Source of the DNA: a virus
Virus record (IMG/VR): IMGVR_UViG_3300045988_149572
Length of the DNA stretch: 64,000 nt
Strand: one strand, 5' to 3'
The translations under genes were made by a program, and so were the position numbers. This document shows, piece by piece, positions 1 to 43,874 of the stretch. Under the pieces are notes generated by a model. It had not been told where the DNA came from, ran no database searches, and saw only the letters and a program-made list of their open reading frames with translations. Position 1 is the first letter of the stretch; each line of letters opens with the position of its first letter.

Positions 1-3000
1 ACAATGAAGAACGAAAATGGCGAGACCATAGTCGTCGGTGTAGATGTGAAGAACGTAGGTCGTGATATGGAGGTGAATGCCATATCAACGATATTCGGAA
101 GGCGAGGTGACGCTAAAAAGACACAGAAAGAGGATGTGCTATATACCGCTGAAAACATTACTCCCGAACAGCGGTCACTTCTCGGTCAGCCCAATTCTGA
201 CCAATATACCGGCGTTCGGGAGAGAAACGTTTCCACCGACAAAGGTAGCGAAAAGGCAGAGAAGAAGCAAAAGAAGCAGAGCGTTTTTGACAAGGCTAAG
301 GAGATTGCCGACAAGGAGGAGAAGAAACGCAAGGCTGAGGACAACTCGGTGCTCGGTCAAGCGACAAGAGCCGTGGGCAAGAAAAAGAAGGTCAACCTGT
401 TCAAATATACGGCTTCAGAAAAAAACAGCAATTCTGCGCTGAGAGGAGTGCATTATGCCAACGGCTATGCGTATGCTTCTGATGGATACATCCTCTTCAA
501 GGAGAAAGCGGACTATCCCAAAGAGTGGGAAGGTACGACCAGAGACAAGGACGGCAATCTGATTGACGGGAAATATCCGGACGCGGAAAAGGCAATACCC
601 AGATTGGTTCACATCCCCGACAAGGAGGTTGAGTCGTTGCCGTCAAAGGAGGTGCTTGACTTCGCCATCGCTGCAAGCAAGAAGTTGAAAGGAGAGGCAA
701 TACCTGTCGCAATTGACGGATTGTTCTTTAATGCAGTCAATCTGAAGAAGTTTCTTGAAGCGGTTGCATCCAAAGGAATGGACAAGGTTGTATACAGGCA
801 TCCTATGTTGTATGCCACCAACGGCAAGGATGAGATTGTAATGATGCCTACAGTGAATACATTGGAGGGCGCATTGGATATTGCCGACAGGATGGAAAGC
901 GCAGGTTTGCCCAAAGAGCAGATTGATGCGTGGAAGGCACACATTGAAGCCGCTGATAAGAAAATGTCGTTTGAGGACTTCAAAAAAGCCGTTGAAAACG
1001 CCAAGAAGGAAGGTGTCAGACCTACGGAAGCTGACAAGCAGGAGAGTAAGGCGGAGGCTGAGAAGCAGAAAGTTGACAAGCAGGGGAATCCAATTGACGC
1101 TGAAGGCAGACTGATAACTGAGAAAGTTGAAGACATCAGCGATTTGTCGGACGATGATTTCAACAATCCGAAACGTTCTGTGGAATTGCCTAAGATACCG
1201 AAGAATATAGATAACGCTCTCGGTGCGAACGGCAAGCCTGTTATTATCAAGAAGAATATATTCGAACGGAACAAGAACGCTCATTCAGACTTAACGGCAG
1301 AGCAGAGCCGAGAAATACTTAAAACAGCGCTGTACTCGGCTGATTTGTATGCTAAGAACCAAAAATCCAAGCGCCCGTTCAATTGGGTAATTATCAAAAC
1401 AAAAGACCACGATGGTAAAAACAAACTTGTTCTCTTGGAAGTTAACGACAACAAGGACAATGTGGAAATTGTGCATTGGCACTATCTTGATGACCGAGGC
1501 CTTGAAAAAATAAAAAAGCAAGCCGAACGTGAGGGCGGGCAACTCCTCATACTGCCTTCCGAAAAAGAAGAGGCTGGCGCCCTTTCCAGCCGTACATCCG
1601 ACTTGCCTGCTGACAAAGGTAGCGAAGTCGGAGGAGAAAAGCAAGAGGCTGAGAAAAAAAGACCCGCTCCGCTATCGGAGCGGATAGAAGATGTCGGAGA
1701 GAAGATTGGCGATGCGAGGAAGGATGTCTGGAAGGAAATAATTGCCAGGATCAAGAATAAAAAACAAGGGATTGAAGAAGCGTTGAAGAAGAGCTCTGCG
1801 GGCAAGCTGTTCTCTTCGTTGTTTGACGAGAAGGAGTTGCTTGAAAGCGGTGTGTCGAATGAGGTTGTGACATTCATCTCAGCGGTAAAGGGCAGTCTTG
1901 GAACGAAACCGAGGTCTTTGTCCAAATTAAAGATGTGGATCAATAAAGTATTGCACCAATATGATATGTGCGAACAGGCATTGGAGAATTGGGAATCCGT
2001 CAAGAAGAAGATTGACGAATGGAAGTACTATAGCCAACCGTTCTATATGTACCGCGCGGCAATGGCAGTCGGAGGATATGAAAGTGGACGTGATGTAGGC
2101 AACGCCGAATTGTGGCAGATTGCTGACGGGTATAGTGATGGAAAGTCCGTAGCCGGGCAATGGTGTGTCCGTAAAGCTGGAGCCTATGATGGAATTTATA
2201 AGACTTACGAGGAAGCAGCCGAGGCTCTGAAGAAATTCGCAGGAGAGAACGCTGCGGTTGACGGCAAAGGGAAACGCAAGGAAGTGAAACTTGCGATATA
2301 CAAAAGGCGGACGGACGGCACTATGTTCATAGCTCCAGAAGGAAAGCCGGATGTGATAATTCAGGATGGATTCAAGACTTTATACGAAGCATCTGCATAT
2401 AAGAAGGAGCATTATGCAGAGATGCAGGAGCGTTATCGGACGTTGATGGATGGCATCAAACCGAAATTCAACGAGAACAGGGAGCGCAAAGGGCGTGACT
2501 GGCGCGGCGGCAAGGATGTGTCGGCGGAGGATTTCCGGGAAGCGTTTGACTTCCGAGGAGTGGAGTTCGGCAACTGGATGCAGCAGAAGGACAGACACCA
2601 GGCGTTGAACGAATGCTACGACTCTCTTATGGACTTGGCGATGGTCTGTGGAGTGTCGCCGAAGGCGTTGTCGCTTGGAGGGAAGTTGGCAATGGCATTC
2701 GGTGCGAGAGGAGGTGGAAAATTCAACGCTCATTACGAGCCGGATAAGGTTGTGATAAACCTTACAAAGACCAAAGGTGCAGGAAGCCTTGCGCACGAAT
2801 GGTTCCACGCCATTGACAATTATTTCAATATGCAAGGTTGGGACGAATTTGCCACAGAAAGCACGCGGAACGTTGAACGCAAGGAAATGGCTGAAGCGTG
2901 GAAGGATTTGGTGCGTGCGATAAACGGAAGTGATTATTTCAAGCGGTCAGACAAATACGCCCGTCTTAAAGGCTCCAGATATTGGATTGAACCGACTGAG

Positions 3001-6000
3001 CTTGGAGCGAGAGCGTTTGCGGTGTGGGTTGAGAACAGACTGTCGAAGTACGGCACGATAAACGACTATCTCGCCAACAATCCACGTCTAGTGGATGAGA
3101 AGGCAAGCGACGCAGAAAAGAAATATGCACCGTACCCATTCGACAAGGACGCTGACTGGATGGACGAGAAATTCGGCAGGTTGTTCGAGGTGATGCAGGA
3201 GCGTGTCGACGAGGAGACAGGTAAGCACATTCTGTACAGCAGAAATAAAGCTGCCGGGCACGAGAAGACGGAGTTGACAGCGGAGGAGCGGGAACTGAGG
3301 GACAACCTTGTGGAGCGTATGCGCAAGGGTGGACTTGACGTGGTGACTGATTCGGAAGAGATGCAAAGAGTCATAGACACCGAGAACGAGCGGACAAGGA
3401 TGATGGGTGCCGGTTCAGTCCGTGAGCATCGTGTGTACCACGGCAGCGGAGCGGACTTCGATGCTTTCGACCACTCGCATATGGGCGAGGGAGAAGGTGC
3501 GCAGGCTTACGGCTGGGGTACTTATGTGACCGAGGTGGAAGGCATCGGCAGGACGTATGCTATTCAGAATACAACGAAGCACAACGATGCTTTACGTGCA
3601 TTGCAACACGATGTAGATGCTATATCTGACCAACTTAACAGACACCGGGATGATTTGAAGTATGACGAAGAGCAGTTAAAACGTGCTAACGAATGGAGAG
3701 CCGAGGCAGAGCTTGACTATGAATTGTTCAAAGATGAAGCTGAGGAATTAAAGGAAAAATATGGAGAGTCTTCTCCTAAATACCGAAATCATCTGTTTAA
3801 TGACATCTATACAGATGAAATGAAACGTGCTCAAAGTTCAGTTAAGAGTATGGAAGAGTCAATCCAGTATCGCAAGGAGAAAATCGCAGAGCTGGAAAAG
3901 GCATTAAAGGATAAGCAAGCGGAGATTGATGAACTGCCGAAGGAGTTTCCACGCCACCTTTACACTGTAGAAATCCCCGATGACAACGGCAGCAACTATC
4001 TGGATTGGAATGGCCACCCTGCTGAATCTTTACTGAAAGATGTAGGTTCGTTTTTGGAGAGTGAAGGCTTTGAGAGGGTACAGGATAACCCTGTCAGATA
4101 TGAGAAAGGCGAAAGCACCGTTGTTTTGAACCCAAATGCGACTGGAGCTGATTTGTATGCGGAATTGCGTGAGGTTCTTGGCAGCGACAAGAAAGCGTCA
4201 CAAGCATTGGCAGAGTTAGGCTGTATTGGCATCAAATATCCTGCTGACAATATGCGTGGTGGCCGTGAGGATGGCGCAAAGAACTACGTTATCTTCAACG
4301 AGAATGATGCGAAGATAACCGACCATACACGCTTTCTGCGTACTGCGGACGGAGAGGTGTACGGCTTGGTGAAGGACGGACGCATATACCTTGACCCAAA
4401 GGTGGCTACAGCGGAGACTGCGGTACACGAATACACGCATCTGTGGGGCGATATGCTGAGGCGCAAGGACTCCGAGCAATGGAGCCACACGGTGAAGGAA
4501 CTGAAGAACAGCGTTCTTTGGGAGGAAGTGAAGGAGTTGTATCCGGAGCTGAAGACCGATGACGAGATAGCGGACGAAGTGTTGTCGACGTTCAGCGGAC
4601 GCAGAGGAGCGGAACGCTTGCGCGAGGAGGCACGCAGGGTTGCCGATGGCGAGGGCGGAGTGTTCACAAAGGCGAAGGCTATCGAGACGTTGGAGCGAGT
4701 GAAGGAAGCCATAGCGCGGTTCTGGGAAGGCGTGGCGAGGATGTTCGGCATCAACCGCTACCGCAGTGCCGAGGAGTTGGCTGATATGGCAATGAAGGAC
4801 TTGCTTGATGGTGTAGACCCAAGAAAGATGGGTAACAACGAGAAAGGCATTGGATTCAGTGCAAAACAAAAAAGAGCACTTGAAACCGTAACGATGGCAG
4901 ACAAATCCACCAATAAAGCCACTGCCATTTCAAGTGCTGATGGCGCAAAGGTACAAAATAATCTTGAAATACTTGCTGAAAGCTACAACAATCGTTCCAA
5001 TAAAACCAAAGGGTTCATAACGGACTTGTCTCAAGCTCTAAACTTGGAGCGACATGAAGCAAGTCATTATGGTACATTTGAGACGCAGAAAGGTAAGTTG
5101 GTTACTATCCGTGTGAGCAATCACAATGCACGTGTTTCATTATTTGACAAGAATGGCGAGAATGATGGCATTAGTATTGTTATATCAAATCATAAGAACA
5201 AGGGACTTTTGAACGATGGCAATGCCCATATTATAGAATTCTTCTACTCCAAACAATCACTTCAAAGAGCCGATGGTAAACCATTGTCGGATATAATCCG
5301 TTCTGTTTCCGAAGTTTTGTATAGTGGTGAGTTTAAGGACACGACAGGTCTTGCTGAGCGGCAGGAGGTGAACGGTGATGATGTGATTCGCTTCCAGTTC
5401 ATCGGTGAGAAGGGTGCTGCGGAAGCCGACCATGCCGAGGAGGTTTTTGCAAACGAAAATGTAGAGCGCAGTGTAAGAGAGAATCCTAAAAGCGAGGAGC
5501 CACGCTTCAGCAGAAAGCCGGGCGAGAGCATCTTCGACTATGCGTCACGTGTGTCGGAAGACGGCTTGCTATTCCGAGATGGTGGTACTGAGTACGATTT
5601 CCCAGGCGAAGACGACGCTCAGAAACTTTACAACGCTGCGGTTGACGGCAGAAAGTCGAGGGCAATAGAATCGTGGCAGGATGAGATGTTCCCCGTGAAG
5701 ATGCTCCAAGAGGCGATTGAGAAAGCCACGGGCGAGAAGATAGCCGACTTCGAGAACGCATATCTGTTAGAGAATCAACTCGGCTCGGCAGGAAACGCAA
5801 CGTTGGAGAAGTATGCGAGAGAGGTTCAGAATCCAATGCGCAAGGTGTATCTTGACATGCTCAAAGCCAAGTTTGATGGAGGGAGCAAAGTTACAAAGTC
5901 GGACATCAACAAGTATGTGATAGCGGTTCACGGATTGGAACGCAATAAGTATATGGCGGATAAGAACAAGGGGTTGCCCGATGCTCGCAGGGACTATTCC

Positions 6001-8685
6001 GGTTTTACCGCATTGTTCGGCAATGGAGAGCAAGTAGAGGTTGAAGAACTTGAACGTAGAGCGGAAGAATATATCGGGAAGTTTGAGGATGCAGTGGGTA
6101 AAGACAAAGCGGATAAGCTATGGTCGCTTGTGGATGAATCAAGACAACGCACGTTGGACGAACTTGTGAGGTCAGGCTTGGTAAGCGGCGATGTCGCAGA
6201 TGAATGGTTGCGTCGCTTCGAGCACTATGTCCCGTTGCAAGGCTTCTCAGAGGAGGTTATAGGAGAGGACAGAAACGCTAATTTCGAAAACCACATCACG
6301 GGGCGTATGTCCGAGGCAAGAGACCCTTTGGCAACACTCGTGAATATGGAGTATGTTGCTGTAACGAGCGGCAATCACAACAGAGTGAAACAGGCTCTTT
6401 ACAACCTTGCGCTCAACCATAGAACAAACCTTCTCTCTGTAATGCCGATGTTCTCTGTAAAGAATCCAATTACTGGTGAATGGGAGGATGCGGTTCCGCA
6501 GATTGATGAAACGATGTCACCGATTGAGAGACAACGGGAGGTTGATAAGTTTATCAAGCAGATGCGCGTACGTATGCGCGAGGAGAAAGACCTTCCAGAA
6601 TCGGACAAAACTGTCAAGGATGCAAGAAAGGTAAGCGTTGGTAGTAAAGTATTGCCTAAAGCTATGCCAGACTTTATTGTGAGGATGAAAGTCAACGGCA
6701 GACAATATGCGGTTGTCCTCAATGGCAATCCAAGAGCTGCGCAGGCTATAAATGGACGGTTGAAGGAACACCCCAACAAGGCATTGCAGAAGATAAGCGG
6801 AGTGACGAGGTTTATGTCAGCTGCGGTTACTGCTTGGAATGCTGCGTTTATGTTAAGCAACTTTGCAAGGGATGTGCAAGCGGCGAACGCTTTTGCTTAT
6901 TCCAACGAGGGAGCAAAATATGCGGCTATGATGGATGCTGAAATCCATAAAAATATGTCGTTGACTTCATTGGGCAGAGATTTGTTTGGGATGAAAAATA
7001 AAGGTATTTATAAGTTATATTATAAATACAGACACAATCAGCTTGACATGAGTAATGAACGGGAAAGATTCTTCAAAGAGTTTGTTGACAATGGAGGTGA
7101 GACCGGGTACACACAGATGGTTGACATTGATAAAATCGCCAAACAGATGCAGAAAGATGAATTTTCTGCAATCAAAGCGATTAAATCGGTCGGCAAGTTC
7201 ATTGAATTGGCAAACAAGGGCTTTGAGAACGCGACACGTTTCGCAGCGTATGCAACAAGCCGAAAAATGGGTAAGTCTGTTATGCAGAGCATTAACGACG
7301 CAAAAGAGATAAGCGTCAATTTCAACAGACACGGAAATGGGCGGAACGGATATGTCATCGCCAAATCGTTGTATCAATTCTTGAATCCTACAATACAAGG
7401 ATTGGAGAAACAATTGCGTACAATAAAAGAACACCCATTAGAGGGCACAGCCGTGTTAATTGCGACACCGATTGCAATAGGATTTGCCATCCCGCTTGTA
7501 AATATCGGATTGGCTATGTTGTCGGGCGGAGGTGACGATGACAAAAAATACTATTGGTCACTTAGCGATTGGACACGCAGAAACAATCTCATTATTGGTG
7601 TGAATGGTAAATTTATAAAAATTCCGTTGCCACCAGAGTTGAGGGTGTTTTATGGAATTGGAGAGATGATTGCGTCGAAGATGAGCAACCCATATGACAA
7701 GACGAATCTTTTGACTGAAATCCCGAAGCATATCAGTGAAACATTGCCGTTCAATGACACAAACAGTACATTTCCATCGTTTGTTAAACCATTTATTGAA
7801 TCAGAGGTTACAGACAAGGATTTTATGGGCAGAAAGATTACTGGGCGTTCTGACTATAACACCCAAGACCCGGAATGGAAACGGGCGGGCTACAACACAG
7901 ACGATGAGTATATAGCCGCCGCCAAATGGTGGCACAGCCTGTTTACCGACAACGACAATGAGAGAGGCTCGTGGTTTGCGGAAATCAACCCATCAGTAGC
8001 AGAACATCTTATCAAGGGTTATACAGGAGGAATTGGAAGTATAGTAGGACAAGTGTACACAACGGTAAAGGCAATAGCCAAAGGCAATGAAAAAGATTAT
8101 TCTGATTCAAGAAATTGGCCTATTGTCAACAGAGTTTATGTCCAGACCACCAAAGAAGATGCAGTGAAAAAAACTACAAATACCGCTTATCGTTTCTATC
8201 AAGACAATTACAAAAACTATGAGCATACGTTTAAAGAAACTCTTAAAGATGAAAAATCCGGTATATTCCAAAAGGCTCAAAGAATTTCAAATATGGTTGA
8301 GACTTCGGAATACAAGCGGTACAGAATGACAGAGCCATTTATAAAAGCAGACAAACTTCTTTGGGATGAAATAAAGGCACTCAAAGAGACAGATGACAAA
8401 GAATCGCTTGAGTGGATTGAAAAAGAACAGACTCGGCTTAGGAGTGTTCTTGTAGAAGCCTCTGAAAAATTTGATATTTATGACAACGCAGGACTTACGT
8501 ACAAACTGGACAGAATGTCAAAGCCAGGTGCTTATAAATCGGATTTGAAGATTGATGTAAAATCAGCACCAAATAAGGATATGCGTAAATTCGCAAAAGA
8601 GTACAATGTCAAGATCGGCAAATACAAACAACAAACCTATAAAGATGAACAAGAAATAAAGAAACATATTCGTGTTAATAAATAA
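1..8685 (+). CDS. giant polyvalent (multi-domain, virion-delivered type) protein, C-terminal >2890 aa; 5' end lies outside the window
   Basis: One frame open from base 1 (ACA precedes the first ATG at 4) to the stop at 8683-8685. HExxH zincin motifs HEWFH (2794-2808) and HEYTH (4426-4440). A YHGSGADFDAFD ... NYVIFNEND block (about 3430-4310) resembles the ART-like module of polyvalent proteins. Clamp-like RGVHYANGYAYASDGYILF near 450-510. Hydrophobic segment about 7444-7530. Sits directly upstream of the portal gene. Confidence 0.8.
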   Translation, partial: TMKNENGETIVVGVDVKNVGRDMEVNAISTIFGRRGDAKKTQKEDVLYTAENITPEQRSLLGQPNSDQYTGVRERNVSTDKGSEKAEKKQKKQSVFDKAKEIADKEEKKRKAEDNSVLGQATRAVGKKKKVNLFKYTASEKNSNSALRGVHYANGYAYASDGYILFKEKADYPKEWEGTTRDKDGNLIDGKYPDAEKAIPRLVHIPDKEVESLPSKEVLDFAIAASKKLKGEAIPVAIDGLFFNAVNLKKFLEAVASKGMDKVVYRHPMLYATNGKDEIVMMPTVNTLEGALDIADRMESAGLPKEQIDAWKAHIEAADKKMSFEDFKKAVENAKKEGVRPTEADKQESKAEAEKQKVDKQGNPIDAEGRLITEKVEDISDLSDDDFNNPKRSVELPKIPKNIDNALGANGKPVIIKKNIFERNKNAHSDLTAEQSREILKTALYSADLYAKNQKSKRPFNWVIIKTKDHDGKNKLVLLEVNDNKDNVEIVHWHYLDDRGLEKIKKQAEREGGQLLILPSEKEEAGALSSRTSDLPADKGSEVGGEKQEAEKKRPAPLSERIEDVGEKIGDARKDVWKEIIARIKNKKQGIEEALKKSSAGKLFSSLFDEKELLESGVSNEVVTFISAVKGSLGTKPRSLSKLKMWINKVLHQYDMCEQALENWESVKKKIDEWKYYSQPFYMYRAAMAVGGYESGRDVGNAELWQIADGYSDGKSVAGQWCVRKAGAYDGIYKTYEEAAEALKKFAGENAAVDGKGKRKEVKLAIYKRRTDGTMFIAPEGKPDVIIQDGFKTLYEASAYKKEHYAEMQERYRTLMDGIKPKFNENRERKGRDWRGGKDVSAEDFREAFDFRGVEFGNWMQQKDRHQALNECYDSLMDLAMVCGVSPKALSLGGKLAMAFGARGGGKFNAHYEPDKVVINLTKTKGAGSLAHEWFHAIDNYFNMQGWDEFATESTRNVERKEMAEAWKDLVRAINGSDYFKRSDKYARLKGSRYWIEPTELGARAFAVWVENRLSKYGTINDYLANNPRLVDEKASDAEKKYAPYPFDKDADWMDEKFGRLFEVMQERVDEETGKHILYSRNKAAGHEKTELTAEERELRDNLVERMRKGGLDVVTDSEEMQRVIDTENERTRMMGAGSVREHRVYHGSGADFDAFDHSHMGEGEGAQAYGWGTYVTEVEGIGRTYAIQNTTKHNDALRALQHDVDAISDQLNRHRDDLKYDEEQLKRANEWRAEAELDYELFKDEAEELKEKYGESSPKYRNHLFNDIYTDEMKRAQSSVKSMEESIQYRKEKIAELEKALKDKQAEIDELPKEFPRHLYTVEIPDDNGSNYLDWNGHPAESLLKDVGSFLESEGFERVQDNPVRYEKGESTVVLNPNATGADLYAELREVLGSDKKASQALAELGCIGIKYPADNMRGGREDGAKNYVIFNENDAKITDHTRFLRTADGEVYGLVKDGRIYLDPKVATAETAVHEYTHLWGDMLRRKDSEQWSHTVKELKNSVLWEEVKELYPELKTDDEIADEVLSTFSGRRGAERLREEARRVADGEGGVFTKAKAIETLERVKEAIARFWEGVARMFGINRYRSAEELADMAMKDLLDGVDPRKMGNNEKGIGFSAKQKRALETVTMADKSTNKATAISSADGAKVQNNLEILAESYNNRSNKTKGFITDLSQALNLERHEASHYGTFETQKGKLVTIRVSNHNARVSLFDKNGENDGISIVISNHKNKGLLNDGNAHIIEFFYSKQSLQRADGKPLSDIIRSVSEVLYSGEFKDTTGLAERQEVNGDDVIRFQFIGEKGAAEADHAEEVFANENVERSVRENPKSEEPRFSRKPGESIFDYASRVSEDGLLFRDGGTEYDFPGEDDAQKLYNAAVDGRKSRAIESWQDEMFPVKMLQEAIEKATGEKIADFENAYLLENQLGSAGNATLEKYAREVQNPMRKVYLDMLKAKFDGGSKVTKSDINKYVIAVHGLERNKYMADKNKGLPDARRDYSGFTALFGNGEQVEVEELERRAEEYIGKFEDAVGKDKADKLWSLVDESRQRTLDELVRSGLVSGDVADEWLRRFEHYVPLQGFSEEVIGEDRNANFENHITGRMSEARDPLATLVNMEYVAVTSGNHNRVKQALYNLALNHRTNLLSVMPMFSVKNPITGEWEDAVPQIDETMSPIERQREVDKFIKQMRVRMREEKDLPESDKTVKDARKVSVGSKVLPKAMPDFIVRMKVNGRQYAVVLNGNPRAAQAINGRLKEHPNKALQKISGVTRFMSAAVTAWNAAFMLSNFARDVQAANAFAYSNEGAKYAAMMDAEIHKNMSLTSLGRDLFGMKNKGIYKLYYKYRHNQLDMSNERERFFKEFVDNGGETGYTQMVDIDKIAKQMQKDEFSAIKAIKSVGKFIELANKGFENATRFAAYATSRKMGKSVMQSINDAKEISVNFNRHGNGRNGYVIAKSLYQFLNPTIQGLEKQLRTIKEHPLEGTAVLIATPIAIGFAIPLVNIGLAMLSGGGDDDKKYYWSLSDWTRRNNLIIGVNGKFIKIPLPPELRVFYGIGEMIASKMSNPYDKTNLLTEIPKHISETLPFNDTNSTFPSFVKPFIESEVTDKDFMGRKITGRSDYNTQDPEWKRAGYNTDDEYIAAAKWWHSLFTDNDNERGSWFAEINPSVAEHLIKGYTGGIGSIVGQVYTTVKAIAKGNEKDYSDSRNWPIVNRVYVQTTKEDAVKKTTNTAYRFYQDNYKNYEHTFKETLKDEKSGIFQKAQRISNMVETSEYKRYRMTEPFIKADKLLWDEIKALKETDDKESLEWIEKEQTRLRSVLVEASEKFDIYDNAGLTYKLDRMSKPGAYKSDLKIDVKSAPNKDMRKFAKEYNVKIGKYKQQTYKDEQEIKKHIRVNK

Positions 8686-40927: not shown

Positions 40928-41363
40928 TGTCTTTTAGTTTTGTTAGATTATGTCAAAAATGTCCAGTTGTCTTGGTTCTGTCACTCGTCCGGAGGGGAAG
41001 AACAATTGCTCGAAGATATGTTCCATACAGGCGACCACAATTGAGTTGCCTGCGAGCTTGTATTGCTGGGACTCCGAGATGTACATCGGCTTCCCGTTCT
41101 TTCTGTGACCCTTGACGTAGTTTTTGATCTTGTTGTAGTCCTCATCTGAGACATCCATCAGGCGGAAACACTCGCGCGGAGTAAGTCTGCGGATGCGATA
41201 TGGAAACGTGTCACCGTAGACGTTGTTAGGTCTGGCGGACGTGAGGGTTGACCCCACGGATTCGGCGAACTCGGTCTGTAGTTCTGCGACACCGCTTTTC
41301 GCTTTGTCCTGCCTATAAGGGCGCAGGTTGTTGTCCTTGTCCACCGACACTCCACAAGGCTGA

Positions 41364-41422
41364 CGGCGAACCTCCTCCGCTACTCGGCGAACCTCCTCCG
41401 CTACTCGGCGAACCTCCTCCGC
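41364..41422. repeat. 21-bp tandem repeat, 2.8 copies, in frame (AEEVRRV x3)
   Basis: cggcgaacctcctccgctact repeated at 41364, 41385 and 41406 (last copy partial). Confidence 0.9.
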
Positions 41423-42221
41423 CTTCGGCTCCAAGACTGCGTTTTCCTCACCCGTGAGGAGAGTGCCGATGATGTCGCCCTTGTTGCCCTGTACTCTCCC
41501 TCGGCGAGTACGGGATGACGGCTGAGAGATGTTGACCGCACCGTACTCCTCCACCTCCGCAAAGCCTTCCCTTGTGTTGGCTTTGATGCGCAAAGGTTCA
41601 AGCAGCATATTGTCTTTCTGCACGCTTGTTATAGTGTTGGACACACCGTCTGTTCTTGGTTCCATCTGTTGCATATATTTCCTTTGTATGTTAATTCTGT
41701 GATTCTCATAATCCTTTCTCAGAAGTTTGGCTTCTTCGGTGCGCTTGGGAGTCAATACATTAGGCTCCCTTCCTCTACTCGCCACCACGAACGGCTCGGC
41801 GATAGAGACGGTCTCTCCGTGGTTGTTCATATCAACAATCGGCTTTGGCTCCAACACATATTGAGCAGTGTTGCCCCTTGTCCCCGTGCTGCAATGGATG
41901 GTGTTCGCTACCTCTTTCGTGTGGTAGTTCTCAATCTTTCCTTTCTTGTCGCGTGAGTAACTCACAATCTTAGGTTCTTCTTTCATCTCGATTATTTTAG
42001 GGATAAGCCCTCCCCCCGACGGGGTGGTGATGGCAGGAGAGACACCATCCGTTATGTACATTCTATATGCCCGATGAAGACCGCTCTCCACGGTCATCAC
42101 TCTGTCCGTCTTCTTCATTGCTTGAATCTTCACTAACGAAATACATACAATTGGCATTCACCCTCGCCTTGATGGTTCCGGCTATGTCGTTGACGCATTG
42201 GTTGTATGTGTCTATCCATAG

Positions 42222-42234
42222 CCCCCCCCCCCCC
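42222..42234. repeat. homopolymer C13 (G13 on the coding strand)
   Basis: Counted directly. Lies inside the broken part of the methyltransferase gene. Confidence 0.95.
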
Positions 42235-42331
42235 TATCAATTTTCGGGAGCATCCGCTGAAGCCGCTTGCCCCCTGTCGCTTGTTTCTTCATTTCTCAGT
42301 CTGTTTTGATCGTAATCTTCCACGATGACCA

Positions 42332-42341
42332 CCCCCCCCCC
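42332..42341. repeat. homopolymer C10 (G10 on the coding strand)
   Basis: Counted directly. TRD-like reading switches frame exactly here. Confidence 0.95.
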
Positions 42342-42628
42342 TATATCCGTGGTTGCGGAGGCATCGTGCCACCCCGTTGCAGGATATGATGTCCTCGCTT
42401 CTATATCCCGTCTTCTCGATCACTATGACCTTGTCTGTTTCCATTTTCCTCGTCTGCTATAGTTACTATACTTCCGTGGTTCAGCATCACCGTCGGAGAG
42501 ATTCCGTCAGTACCGATGACGATACCGCTTATCTGACTCTTCGGGTAAAGCCTTCCGACACGGTTTATTGTTCTTGGATGTAATTGTCGTCGTTCCTCAT
42601 CACGCCTGCTTGGATTGTCTTCGCTATA

Positions 42629-42637
42629 CCCCCCCCC
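42629..42637. repeat. homopolymer C9 (G9 on the coding strand)
   Basis: Counted directly. Encodes GGG in ...EYTEGGGIAKTIQ. Confidence 0.95.
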
Positions 42638-43382
42638 TCGGTGTACTCAAACTTGTGGTTGGTGGTGGTTTCGGCGTTCCATTTCAGCCGCCCCAATATC
42701 ACGTCAGTCTTAAGATAGTATCTATCCTCGACACTCTCACCGTCGTGGTATGTAACAAGTACGTCACGGAGCCGTCTTTCCAACGGGAACGGCTGAGGAA
42801 AATCATACTTGATGCCGCTCGGGAACAACTGTGGGAACTTGGCGGACGCATCCTTGCGGATGCTTAACGCGAACACCCTCACACGGTTCTGCGGAACACC
42901 GAAATCTTTAGCGTTTATCTTCTTCCAGTATGTCTTGTAGCCTTGCTCGTCAAGGTAGTCAATCCATCGCTGGAAGTCGGGCATAAACTTCTTGGAAGCC
43001 AACGCCGCCACGTTCTCGAGTAAAAGGAATGACGGACGCTTCGTCTCTATCGCCCTCCTACACTCCCATAGCAATGATGAGCGCGAACCACTGCCTTCCT
43101 GCAAGCCTCGCTGAAGTCCGGCATTGCTGATGTCCTGACAAGGGAAGCTGTAGGTGAACAAGTCGAAGTCAGACACTCGCTCCCAATCGACCTTGCTTAT
43201 GTCACCGTGGTTGCATTCGGCATATTCGGGGAACACGGCATTGTGGGCGGCTATTGCGTCATTGTCAATCTCGCTCCATCCGACAAGCTGGAAATCCGCA
43301 CCGCCAGCGTGGCGCCGTGCGACTCGGCGCAGAGCCATCATCTGCGAGCCGTAGCCGGCGAAAGCCTCGAACACTCTGATTC

Positions 43383-43874
43383 TCATATCAATCCGTTATT
43401 TGTGCTTCCGAAGCCGCCTTTTCCGCGCTCGGTAGCTTGGTTGAACAACTCTTCCTCATCCACGACCTCGACACCCTCATAGCTCACGGGGGTAAGCACG
43501 AACTGCGCCACCTTCATTCCTGGATGAATTACTTCTACGCATCTGCCGACATTGATGAGATGTATGTATATCTCGCCTTGATAGTCCTCGTCGACAACGC
43601 ACGCTCCGACAACGAGCGTTCCTTTGGGGGCGTTTGCCTTTGGCGTCAGACCAGCGCGCCGCATAGCGTCTGTGGATGTCGCCACGCTGGAGCGGTTCAT
43701 CGCAATCAGCGCGTAGCCGTGCGGCACTTCCGCCCTTATACCGCTCGGCACGAGGATGTCAGTCCCCGATGTCAGCCGAGCCGTGAAGCCTTTCGGCACG
43801 TAGAAGTCCAGCCCTGCCGAGCATTCAGTCCCTCTTGTGGGGGTCTTCACCTCCCTAATCTTCGTTATCTTCAT
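43383..43874 (-). CDS. dut: dUTP diphosphatase
   Basis: AGLDFYVP, NRSSVA, VVDEDYQGEI and RGKGGFGSTN are the dUTPase motifs, in order. Confidence 0.9.
   Translation of the reverse strand: MKITKIREVKTPTRGTECSAGLDFYVPKGFTARLTSGTDILVPSGIRAEVPHGYALIAMNRSSVATSTDAMRRAGLTPKANAPKGTLVVGACVVDEDYQGEIYIHLINVGRCVEVIHPGMKVAQFVLTPVSYEGVEVVDEEELFNQATERGKGGFGSTNNGLI

Follow-up and report, generated by a model that had tools for sequence, protein, structure and literature searches.

A split phage C5 methyltransferase with frame-staggered recognition modules and hypervariable G tracts as a probable contingency locus

The 64,000-nucleotide viral sequence of IMG/VR record IMGVR_UViG_3300045988_149572 (hereafter the window, meaning this whole stretch) belongs to a Bacteroides-type temperate phage and encodes, on the minus strand at 40943-43386, a C5 cytosine DNA methyltransferase whose coding sequence changes frame repeatedly close to runs of G. 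A first-pass annotation, made from the letters alone, had offered three readings of these breaks, namely slipped-strand phase variation that switches target recognition domain (TRD) blocks on and off, decay of the gene, and homopolymer sequencing error. Our analysis favors, with a probability of roughly 65%, a phage-borne, natively split, multi-TRD methyltransferase that works as a multi-tract contingency locus varying methylation specificity, a function that we infer from the organization of the locus. Rather than being dead, the "broken gene" most likely has variation built into it as a switch.

Long G tracts are confined to the methyltransferase gene

Three G homopolymers on the minus strand, G9, G10, and G13 (T1, T2, and T3; Table 1), lie where the first-pass annotation had placed them. 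They are the sole runs of seven or more G or C in the 64-kb window, and all three fall inside 410 bp of the methyltransferase gene. The G9 pattern has eight overlapping matches against 0.11 expected, a count that none of 100 shuffles reached. GGG is the rarest glycine codon of the phage (77 of 763, 10%), and GGG GGG is used in 0 of the 46 Gly-Gly dipeptides and 0 of the 4 longer Gly runs of the other open reading frames (ORFs), so the tracts are not a by-product of composition. The gene contains, as is expected of a contingency locus, long simple repeats within coding sequence that are over-represented relative to the genome. The tract lengths of the window come from an assembly, in which an error of one G either way is possible at any single tract, G13 included.

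Relatives were collected by protein-guided scans of viral, metagenome, and genome collections and by exact-protein look-ups, all of the data being metagenome assemblies. They comprise about 45 close relatives (87-99% identical in the alpha ORF described below) and about 25 more distant ones. Within the 6-10 kb loci of the close relatives, no such runs were found outside the methyltransferase, and the first 50 kb of the Bacteroides phage BS-TP4 contain no G or C run of seven or more.

The enzyme is encoded on two reading frames

With three states allowed per tract, no combination of tract lengths yielded a single ORF in the full-length layout, and we therefore sought a split-gene explanation. 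The first subunit, alpha, matches PF00145 (E = 5e-48) over profile positions 2-227 of 324 and contains FPCQD, ENV, and QNRxR, in the window as in the relatives, with the catalytic Pro-Cys in FPCQDIS. The second subunit, beta, comprises at least five tandem TRD-like units followed by motifs IX-X; it matches profile positions 252-322 of PF00145 and contains RRLTPRE and GNSI. Residues 299-390 of beta (the last TRD and motifs IX-X) align to the M.MpeI structures 4dkj and 8c56, and its C terminus is 37% identical to that of the phi3T multispecific methyltransferase. In the window, neither ORF is interrupted (273 and 404 residues). This is the two-polypeptide layout of C5 methyltransferases, with motifs I-VIII on one ORF, motifs IX-X on the adjacent ORF, and the break inside the variable region.

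The same division recurs in the relatives. Alpha has 2220 homologues at E ≤ 1e-60; among the best 120, nearly all are 230-350 residues long and terminate soon after the conserved ..PT(E/D)GGG(I/Y)A(K/R)xI...DDN(Y/F)I.. domain. In the distant relatives L010/L050, L014, L040, L013, and L039 (52-56% identity), the enzyme lies on two ORFs, of which alpha ends in ..NE(T/N)DNPD-stop and beta begins with MK(Q/T)IIPIN in the +1 frame, ~20 nt upstream of the alpha stop. The split is present in L013 without any homopolymer and, within the close lineage, also in the "locked" alleles that have no tracts (L062-L066). Fused single-chain forms are rare (626 residues in L008 and 344 in the database protein P0006), and the split form is that of the window and of almost every relative. 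Judged by these comparisons, the family is natively split into alpha and a +1-overlapping beta, as in M.AquI.

In M.AquI, the large subunit carries motifs I-VIII and the proximal variable region, and the small subunit carries the distal variable region and motifs IX-X (PMC3404938), which is exactly the alpha/beta division of the window; fragments of monomeric C5 methyltransferases can also complement each other (PMC3404938). By analogy with M.AquI, the split enzyme would be active, with both polypeptides working together. M.AquI is a cellular, monospecific, restriction-modification enzyme without repeats, whereas in the window the junction is triplicated and slippery tracts lie alongside it. 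About ten TRD-like units, called by pattern and not by a formal TRD profile, share G-(I/V)-(S/A)-x-T-(I/L/V)...hydrophobic strand-E-(P/D), and the last of them aligns to the TL region of M.MpeI; M.AquI and the multispecific enzymes of Bacillus phages suggest that these TRDs have distinct specificities.

A perfect 21-bp tandem repeat (2.8 copies, encoding AEEVRRV three times) occupies a linker of beta at 41364-41422 on the minus strand. Its copy number in the relatives is 1, 2, or 3, and the frame is always kept.

Table 1. Features of the methyltransferase locus in the window, listed in the order of the minus strand
Feature	Positions	Strand	Description
Alpha subunit ORF	42565..43386	(-)	273 aa; motifs I-VIII and C-terminal TRD-A; state set by T1 = G9
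T1	42629-42637	(-)	G9; codes TE-GGG-IAKTI
TRD-A segment	42568..42628	(-)	IAKTIQAGVMRNDDNYIQEQ; family motif PT(E/D)GGG(I/Y)A(K/R)xI...DDN(Y/F)I
TRD-B cassette	42404..42564	(-)	RVGRLYPKSQISGIVIGTDGISPTVMLNHGSIVTIADEEN...; offset by -1 from the alpha frame; closed by TAG 42401-42403; silent in the window
J1	ATG 42442..42444	(-)	METDKVIVIEK; inside ..IADEEN.. in the +1 frame; first junction copy (alpha-stop/beta-start)
TRD-C mini-ORF	42289..42441	(-)	From J1; 51 aa at G10; runs into GGGGHRGRLRSKQTEK-stop in the window
T2	42332-42341	(-)	G10
TRD-C end	42237..42331	(-)	VVIVEDYDQNRLRNEETSDRGQAASADAPEN; stop TGA 42237-42239, then TAG
J2	ATG 42290..42292	(-)	MKKQATGGKRLQRMLPKIDR (MKKQATG); +1 frame inside ..RNEE..; second junction copy
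T3	42222-42234	(-)	G13; longest length seen at the T3 site
TRD-D cassette	42066..42221	(-)	LWIDTYNQCVNDIAGTIKARVNANCMYFVSEDSSNEED...; stop 42063-42065; silent in the window
J3	ATG 42116..42118	(-)	MKKTDRVMTVES... (MKKTDRV); +1 frame inside ..SNEED..; third junction copy
Beta subunit ORF	40943..42157	(-)	404 aa from the first ATG; 391 aa from the J3 ATG
T4 site	42008-42017	(-)	Interrupted in the window by an A (GGGGGGAGGG) and thereby stabilised in frame
72-bp deletion scar	41831..41832	(-)	In-frame by alignment; removed tract T5 and half a TRD

Breaks outside the tracts are copies of a native junction

The frame path that the first-pass annotation had traced, with its stops, is correct in every detail that we checked. 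The frame of the N-terminal ORF, alpha, stops at 42565-42567, and the RVGRLYPK...ISPTVML frame ends at the TAG that closes TRD-B. The first frame is resumed by KVIVIEK...GYRGGGG, which leads into G10; VVIVEDYDQ lies in the third frame, and TGA TAG directly precedes G13. The same annotation had held that frame switches lying away from homopolymers weaken a pure phase-variation model. The switches do lie off homopolymers, but they copy the native alpha/beta junction: by sequence homology, the breaks at ~42445, 42290, and 42116 are three homologous copies of that junction (J1, J2, and J3) and not lesions.

All three copies share the motif AATGAAGAA and shift to the +1 frame, and each supplies an ATG in the frame that follows, so that no recoding is needed to explain the offset. 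J1 is homologous to the ..NE(T/N)DNPD-stop/MK(Q/T)IIPIN junction of the distant relatives; its +1 offset is common to all loci having this module, and its ATG is the real beta start in L002, L016, L018, and L062-L066. The offsets at J1-J3 are the same in every relative having those modules, 65%-identity lineages included, the sole exception being L054, in which a J3 shortened by 1 nt leaves TRD-D and beta in one continuous frame. In the window, the J3 ATG is the probable start of beta.

The modules between these junctions have counterparts elsewhere in the family. TRD-B is homologous to the alpha C terminus of L013 and, by frame prediction, is read as part of alpha in genomes with T1 at G10 or G7; TRD-D homologues occur after a G9 tract in L068 and without a tract in L012. 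Read in the -1 frame, the TRD-A segment forms an open, hydrophilic 20-codon linker into TRD-B. At 20 codons, this linker is too short for significance and is weak evidence by itself, but it gains weight because the same layout recurs in a second lineage, as described below.

Each tract sets the frame at a module border

T1 has three outcomes. At G9 or G12, alpha ends with TRD-A (273 residues); at G10 or G7, it continues through a 20-residue hydrophilic linker into TRD-B and a junction-type tail (327-328 residues); and at G8 or G11, it ends as GGV-stop (257 residues) with neither TRD-A nor TRD-B. Relatives in which T1 is one G longer than in the window (L003, L004, and L055-L061) have an alpha of 328 residues that reads into the RVGRLYPK module. 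The earlier remark that G9 is in frame thus holds for one of the three outcomes, G10 being the length that reads into that module. Likewise, the frame does change near 42570, but the switch noted there as a separate break outside the tracts is resolved at T1, 60 nt upstream, which decides between a stop at 42565 and a -1 read-through into TRD-B. The clusters of T1 outputs in the protein collection contain 726 members for the 273-residue form and 277 (26+132+119) for the 327-328-residue form.

T2 joins TRD-C to its C-terminal strand, VVIVED..., at G6, G9, or G12, and the joined ORF (72-75 residues) is found in L003, L005, L009, L023, L024, L027, L029, and L033. T3 joins an ATG-led leader, MKKQ..KIDR, to the LWIDTYNQ of TRD-D at G8, G11, or G14; as had been noted from the sequence, the KIDRGGGG of the window would be joined only with one extra G. 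T4 and T5 lie in beta, where tract length either keeps beta whole or splits it, with T5 in frame at G8 or G11. In the window, beta is locked on because T4 is interrupted by an A and T5 was lost by deletion. The lost 72-bp segment is kept in most relatives; the deletion took place between ATGAACAA direct repeats and left beta in frame. The state of the window is therefore alpha with TRD-A plus an intact beta, and cassettes B, C, and D are silent. Changes in tract length thus give defined changes in product (273, 328, or 257 residues at T1; beta intact or split at T4 and T5), which is a further property of contingency loci.

We propose that the poly-G tracts, which encode Gly-Gly-Gly at TRD borders, would change in length by replication slippage, with (i) T1 picking TRD-A, TRD-B, or no TRD on alpha; (ii) T2 and T3 opening or closing single-TRD mini-ORFs; and (iii) T4 and T5, in the relatives, turning beta, or the first TRDs of beta, on or off. 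Beta would start at a +1-frame ATG that overlaps the end of the preceding ORF, and the tracts and repeated junctions also serve as sites of deletions by which modules become fused or are lost. A slip can alter TRD content without killing the enzyme, since the latter is split and its alternative TRDs lie in different frames. The idea of TRD blocks switched on and off survives in spirit, but it was incomplete in leaving out this split architecture. The purpose may be bet-hedging of protective phage methylation against diverse Bacteroides restriction systems. A bolder version, in which the TRD library in three frames, the 3-5 G tracts, and the split enzyme together generate combinatorial methylation specificities, as a "multi-switch phasevarion" within a phage or lysogen population that evades diverse and changing restriction systems, is tentative, and we consider it somewhat improbable.

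Tract lengths differ between near-identical genomes

The first-pass annotation had called for a comparison of tract lengths in related genomes, and this comparison shows that the lengths vary and are not fixed. About 45 related contigs have poly-G at the same five sites, T1-T5, with lengths of 6-13. The lengths are 7-11 at T1 (31 relatives, modal G8), 6-12 at T2 (32 relatives), 6-13 at T3 (27 relatives, modal G9), 8-13 or interrupted at T4, and 8-11 at T5 (16 relatives).

Two sets of contigs set the tracts apart from the surrounding sequence. L009 and L021 differ over 7.8 kb by two single-nucleotide polymorphisms and one 18-bp repeat indel, yet show a 1-G difference at four of four tracts. L055-L061 are seven near-clonal contigs from seven samples. 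Over 4-7 kb, 0-1 mismatches separate six of these contigs, and L058, the remaining one, has 10 across its longest overlaps (6.9 kb). These seven contigs share T1-T3, but T4 is G12 in three of them (beta of 439 residues) and G13 in four (beta split into 54 and 404 residues). Repeat length thus differs between near-identical genomes, and slipped-strand variation at the G tracts, as first suggested from the window, is supported both by these genomes, which differ (almost) only at the tracts, and by the 6-13 range among the ~45 contigs. A similar effect is seen in L007 and L008, which share a deleted layout and are 95.7-97.7% and 95.5-97.1% identical to the window, respectively. L008, with T1 at G8, has one intact ORF of 626 residues from its ATG, whereas the ORF of L007, with T1 at G9, is broken and becomes a single ORF of 629 residues when one G is removed.

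The 18-bp indel, which is a copy difference in a tandem repeat (AATGTAAATGAGAATGAG; L009 3232-3249) of an upstream gene, is the only indel outside the tracts between L009 and L021. In L022, the GGGGG of the leader before T3 (4610-4618, equivalent to window 42270-42274) has grown to G9 and forms a sixth tract, so new tracts arise in this region.

The modules are kept as coding sequence, and the design recurs in a second lineage

Variable sites among the close relatives fall on the third codon positions of each module's own frame. Third positions account for 103 of the 147 variable sites in the alpha core (p = 4e-20), 14 of 19 in TRD-B (p = 7e-4), 23 of 48 in TRD-C (p = 0.047), 6 of 8 in the leader before T3 (p = 0.044), and 13 of 19 in TRD-D (p = 0.004); the beta segments show the same excess (p = 1e-4 to 8e-11). 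From this pattern it follows that the modules, in three frames, have been kept as coding sequence under purifying selection since an ancestor that already had the offsets, with the caveat that recombination importing variation from expressed copies would give the same pattern.

Three contigs that are ~55% identical to the window in alpha (L068-L070) have the same design. A tract precedes TRD-A in ISEN-GGG-YANCIRAN, and its length is G9 in L069 and L070 (on) but G7 in L068 (null). Downstream, a slip of one base gives access to a second TRD (..CRTIKAQY..), which is encoded in a different frame. A T3-like tract precedes ILDTYNQ in L068. In all three contigs, beta contains a T4-like tract (GISPCLNxCGGG/NLEPKIL), which has the on length of G9 in L068 and the off length of G10 in L069 and L070. 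Further, the corresponding position of alpha in L010, L014, L040, and L050 is occupied by a tract of C8-C10, for which C8 is the on state and C10 the off state. Because homopolymers recur at the same protein positions in different bases, we would argue that mutability itself is selected there.

Counter-evidence and alternative explanations

Several observations weigh against a contingency locus. Tract variation is known from the comparison of assemblies, and heterogeneity and reversibility inside one population, like any effect on fitness, would be an extrapolation from it; a pipeline effect might be what makes all four tracts differ by the same -1 between L009 and L021. Most sampled genomes are in non-joining phases (T1 at modal G8 and T3 at modal G9), and there is no sign of selection for the ON state, although this majority fits drift in lysogens. 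Mini-ORFs C and D have no catalytic motifs and thus no obvious way to work, and TRD-B is open even in alleles without the T1 tract, for which the model gives no reason. The activity of the split enzyme and the specificities of its TRDs are drawn by analogy from M.AquI and the multispecific enzymes of Bacillus phages. Finally, extra alpha breaks in L011, L036, and L037 indicate that some copies are decaying or badly assembled. In these three contigs the catalytic core of alpha is interrupted, in one case where a G7 has newly formed (L037 3829-3835), and the copies may be truly inactivated or poorly assembled.

Some of these points would suit switching at the level of RNA or the ribosome, through transcriptional slippage on G9-G13 or programmed frameshifting at the junctions, with a single genotype giving a fixed mix of isoforms and with DNA length changes being secondary. 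G tracts of nine or more can make RNA polymerase slip in bacteria, the modules in three frames remain under selection, and the open TRD-B of tract-free alleles is in keeping with such a mechanism. We nevertheless regard it as unlikely. By inspection, J1-J3 and the TRD-A stop show neither a canonical slippery heptamer (X XXY YYZ) nor a conserved +1 site, and alleles differ in sequence at these places (CAA GAA CAA TAA vs GAA AAA TAA). Moreover, the length polymorphism is seen directly in DNA, and the ATG in the new frame at each junction makes recoding unnecessary.

The tracts might instead be mainly recombination joints for the shuffling of TRD cassettes, with frame switching as an unselected side effect. 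Hybrid tracts, in which the left flank belongs to one site and the right flank to another, mark tract-to-tract deletions, and five distinct fusions are found in the relatives: T1/T4 (L007 and L008), T1/T3 (L031), T2/T3 (L028 and L054), T2/T5 (L037), and T3/T5 (L020). Junction-to-junction deletions put beta directly after J1 in L002, L016, L018, and L062-L066, and two proteins of the database, P0006 and P0019, likewise arose by deletion. Deletions are one-way, however, and the sole in-frame fusion among those sampled is L008. The three-state layout of T1, with two alternative TRDs in different frames, recurs in an independent lineage, which is a better fit to frame switching. We therefore consider shuffling improbable as the main role, and as a role beside frame switching it is compatible and not exclusive.

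Decay of a former single-chain methyltransferase, in which the G tracts would simply be the easiest places for frameshifts, would account for the finding of a single uninterrupted ORF in only one short-layout relative (L008), for the additional alpha breaks in L011, L036, and L037, and for the many tracts in non-joining phases. This reading, the second that the first-pass annotation had offered, is very unlikely, since alpha and beta are both intact in the window, and since the split, with its overlapping +1 start, is kept down to 52% identity and in tract-free members. Each module, moreover, shows third-position variation in its own frame, and tract positions are kept in the ~55%-identity lineage. 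The avoidance of GGG GGG elsewhere in the genome also argues that the tracts are maintained.

Sequencing or assembly error, in which the true tracts would be fixed and the frame changes fewer or absent, draws on the error-proneness of long G runs, the exact -1 at every tract between L009 and L021, and the origin of all data in metagenome assemblies, but it has very little probability, given that (i) no tract lengths restore the full-length layout to one ORF; (ii) J1-J3 lie off homopolymers, and their +1 offset is shared by every independent assembly carrying them save one, and the tracts too are conserved across many independent assemblies; (iii) duplicate records of the same genome (L005 = L023 and L062 = L064) have identical tract lengths, so assembly noise is not the main source of length variation; and (iv) G12 and G13 at T4 divide near-identical contigs of different samples 3 to 4.

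Relation to known systems

The methyltransferase of the window has partial counterparts, besides M.AquI, in three groups of systems. Like the M.SPRI, M.Phi3TI, M.Rho11sI, and SPbeta enzymes of Bacillus phages, it is a phage-encoded orphan C5 methyltransferase with apparent tandem TRDs between motifs VIII and IX, presumably for protection against several restriction enzymes. The Bacillus phage enzymes are single polypeptides with 3-4 TRDs and without hypermutable repeats, whereas the locus in the window is split, with ~10 TRD-like units, some of them in other frames, and with poly-G at TRD borders.

In the phase-variable methyltransferases that are well known from bacteria, a repeat in a methyltransferase or specificity gene likewise shifts the frame (Type III mod phasevarions, the poly-G of Neisseria gonorrhoeae NgoAV hsdS, and the Type IIG gene cj0031 of Campylobacter jejuni). 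For NgoAV, a truncated specificity subunit changes specificity while activity is kept (PMC9577141, PMC4889913). These bacterial systems are chromosomal N6-adenine enzymes with one repeat per gene, whereas the locus described here encodes a C5-cytosine enzyme of a phage and combines 3-5 tracts with alternative domains in different frames.

Contingency loci of phages, such as T2 agt and T4 rIIA, were proposed in 2025 as a form of bet-hedging (bioRxiv 10.1101/2025.10.21.683753). The same preprint, citing Sorensen 2021 and Liu 2004, mentions poly-G in receptor-binding genes of Campylobacter Fletchervirus and in the methylase of Bordetella phage BPP-1, the latter noted but unstudied. These loci share hypermutable homopolymers in phage genes with the window, but they are single ON/OFF tracts. 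Our literature searches turned up neither a multispecific phage C5 methyltransferase that is phase-variable or split nor a case of several tracts choosing between TRDs in different frames of a split, multi-TRD phage methyltransferase.

If the bolder version of our reading is correct, this would be the first described phase-variable multispecific methyltransferase, in which the tracts double as domain-shuffling joints. The restriction-modification systems of gut Bacteroides are very diverse and many are mobile, and Bacteroides prophages contain roughly a thousand methyltransferase genes (PMC10333322). If slippage alone lets a temperate phage reshuffle the sequences that it methylates, the locus would provide a fast, reversible counter-defence, one that could hedge between classical restriction, against which methylation protects, and restriction of the methylation-dependent kind, which it provokes, and the host methylome could change in lysogens. 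It would also be a natural and abundant example of phage contingency loci, with hundreds of instances in public human-gut assemblies. A practical warning is that split, frame-staggered methyltransferases are easily mis-annotated as pseudogenes.

Phage context and other observations

The methyltransferase sits in the replication module of a phage with portal, terminase, capsid, integrase, DnaB, and dUTPase genes. Its capsid is ~69-70% identical to those of the Bacteroides temperate phages BS-TP4 and BKO1-TP3 (~69% for BS-TP4). The methyltransferase of BS-TP4, a cultured structural relative, is distant and single-chain (28% identity over 150 residues), and no cultured phage model carrying the locus was found. 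A megablast of the locus against 50,697 phage records gave no DNA match; the best protein matches among these records are ~50% identical and come from uncultured human-faecal phages.

Two other genes of the relatives may bear on host defence. A metallo-beta-lactamase-fold protein with a weak match to the anti-Pycsar protein Apyc1 adjoins RecT in L062/L063 (302-1101), and a second (N6/N4) methyltransferase lies downstream in some relatives (L063 6569-7123), so these phages hold several counter-defence candidates.

Elsewhere in the window, a giant ORF of 2893 residues runs on the plus strand from the window start (4-8685) and matches only PHROGs of unknown function; its BS-TP4 counterpart, of 5391 residues, has the same position, upstream of the portal gene. 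The phage also contains a tyrosine-type integrase (29354-30649, minus strand) and a transposase-family ORF (phrog_2199; 36289-37350, minus strand), the latter of which may be an inserted insertion sequence (IS) element.

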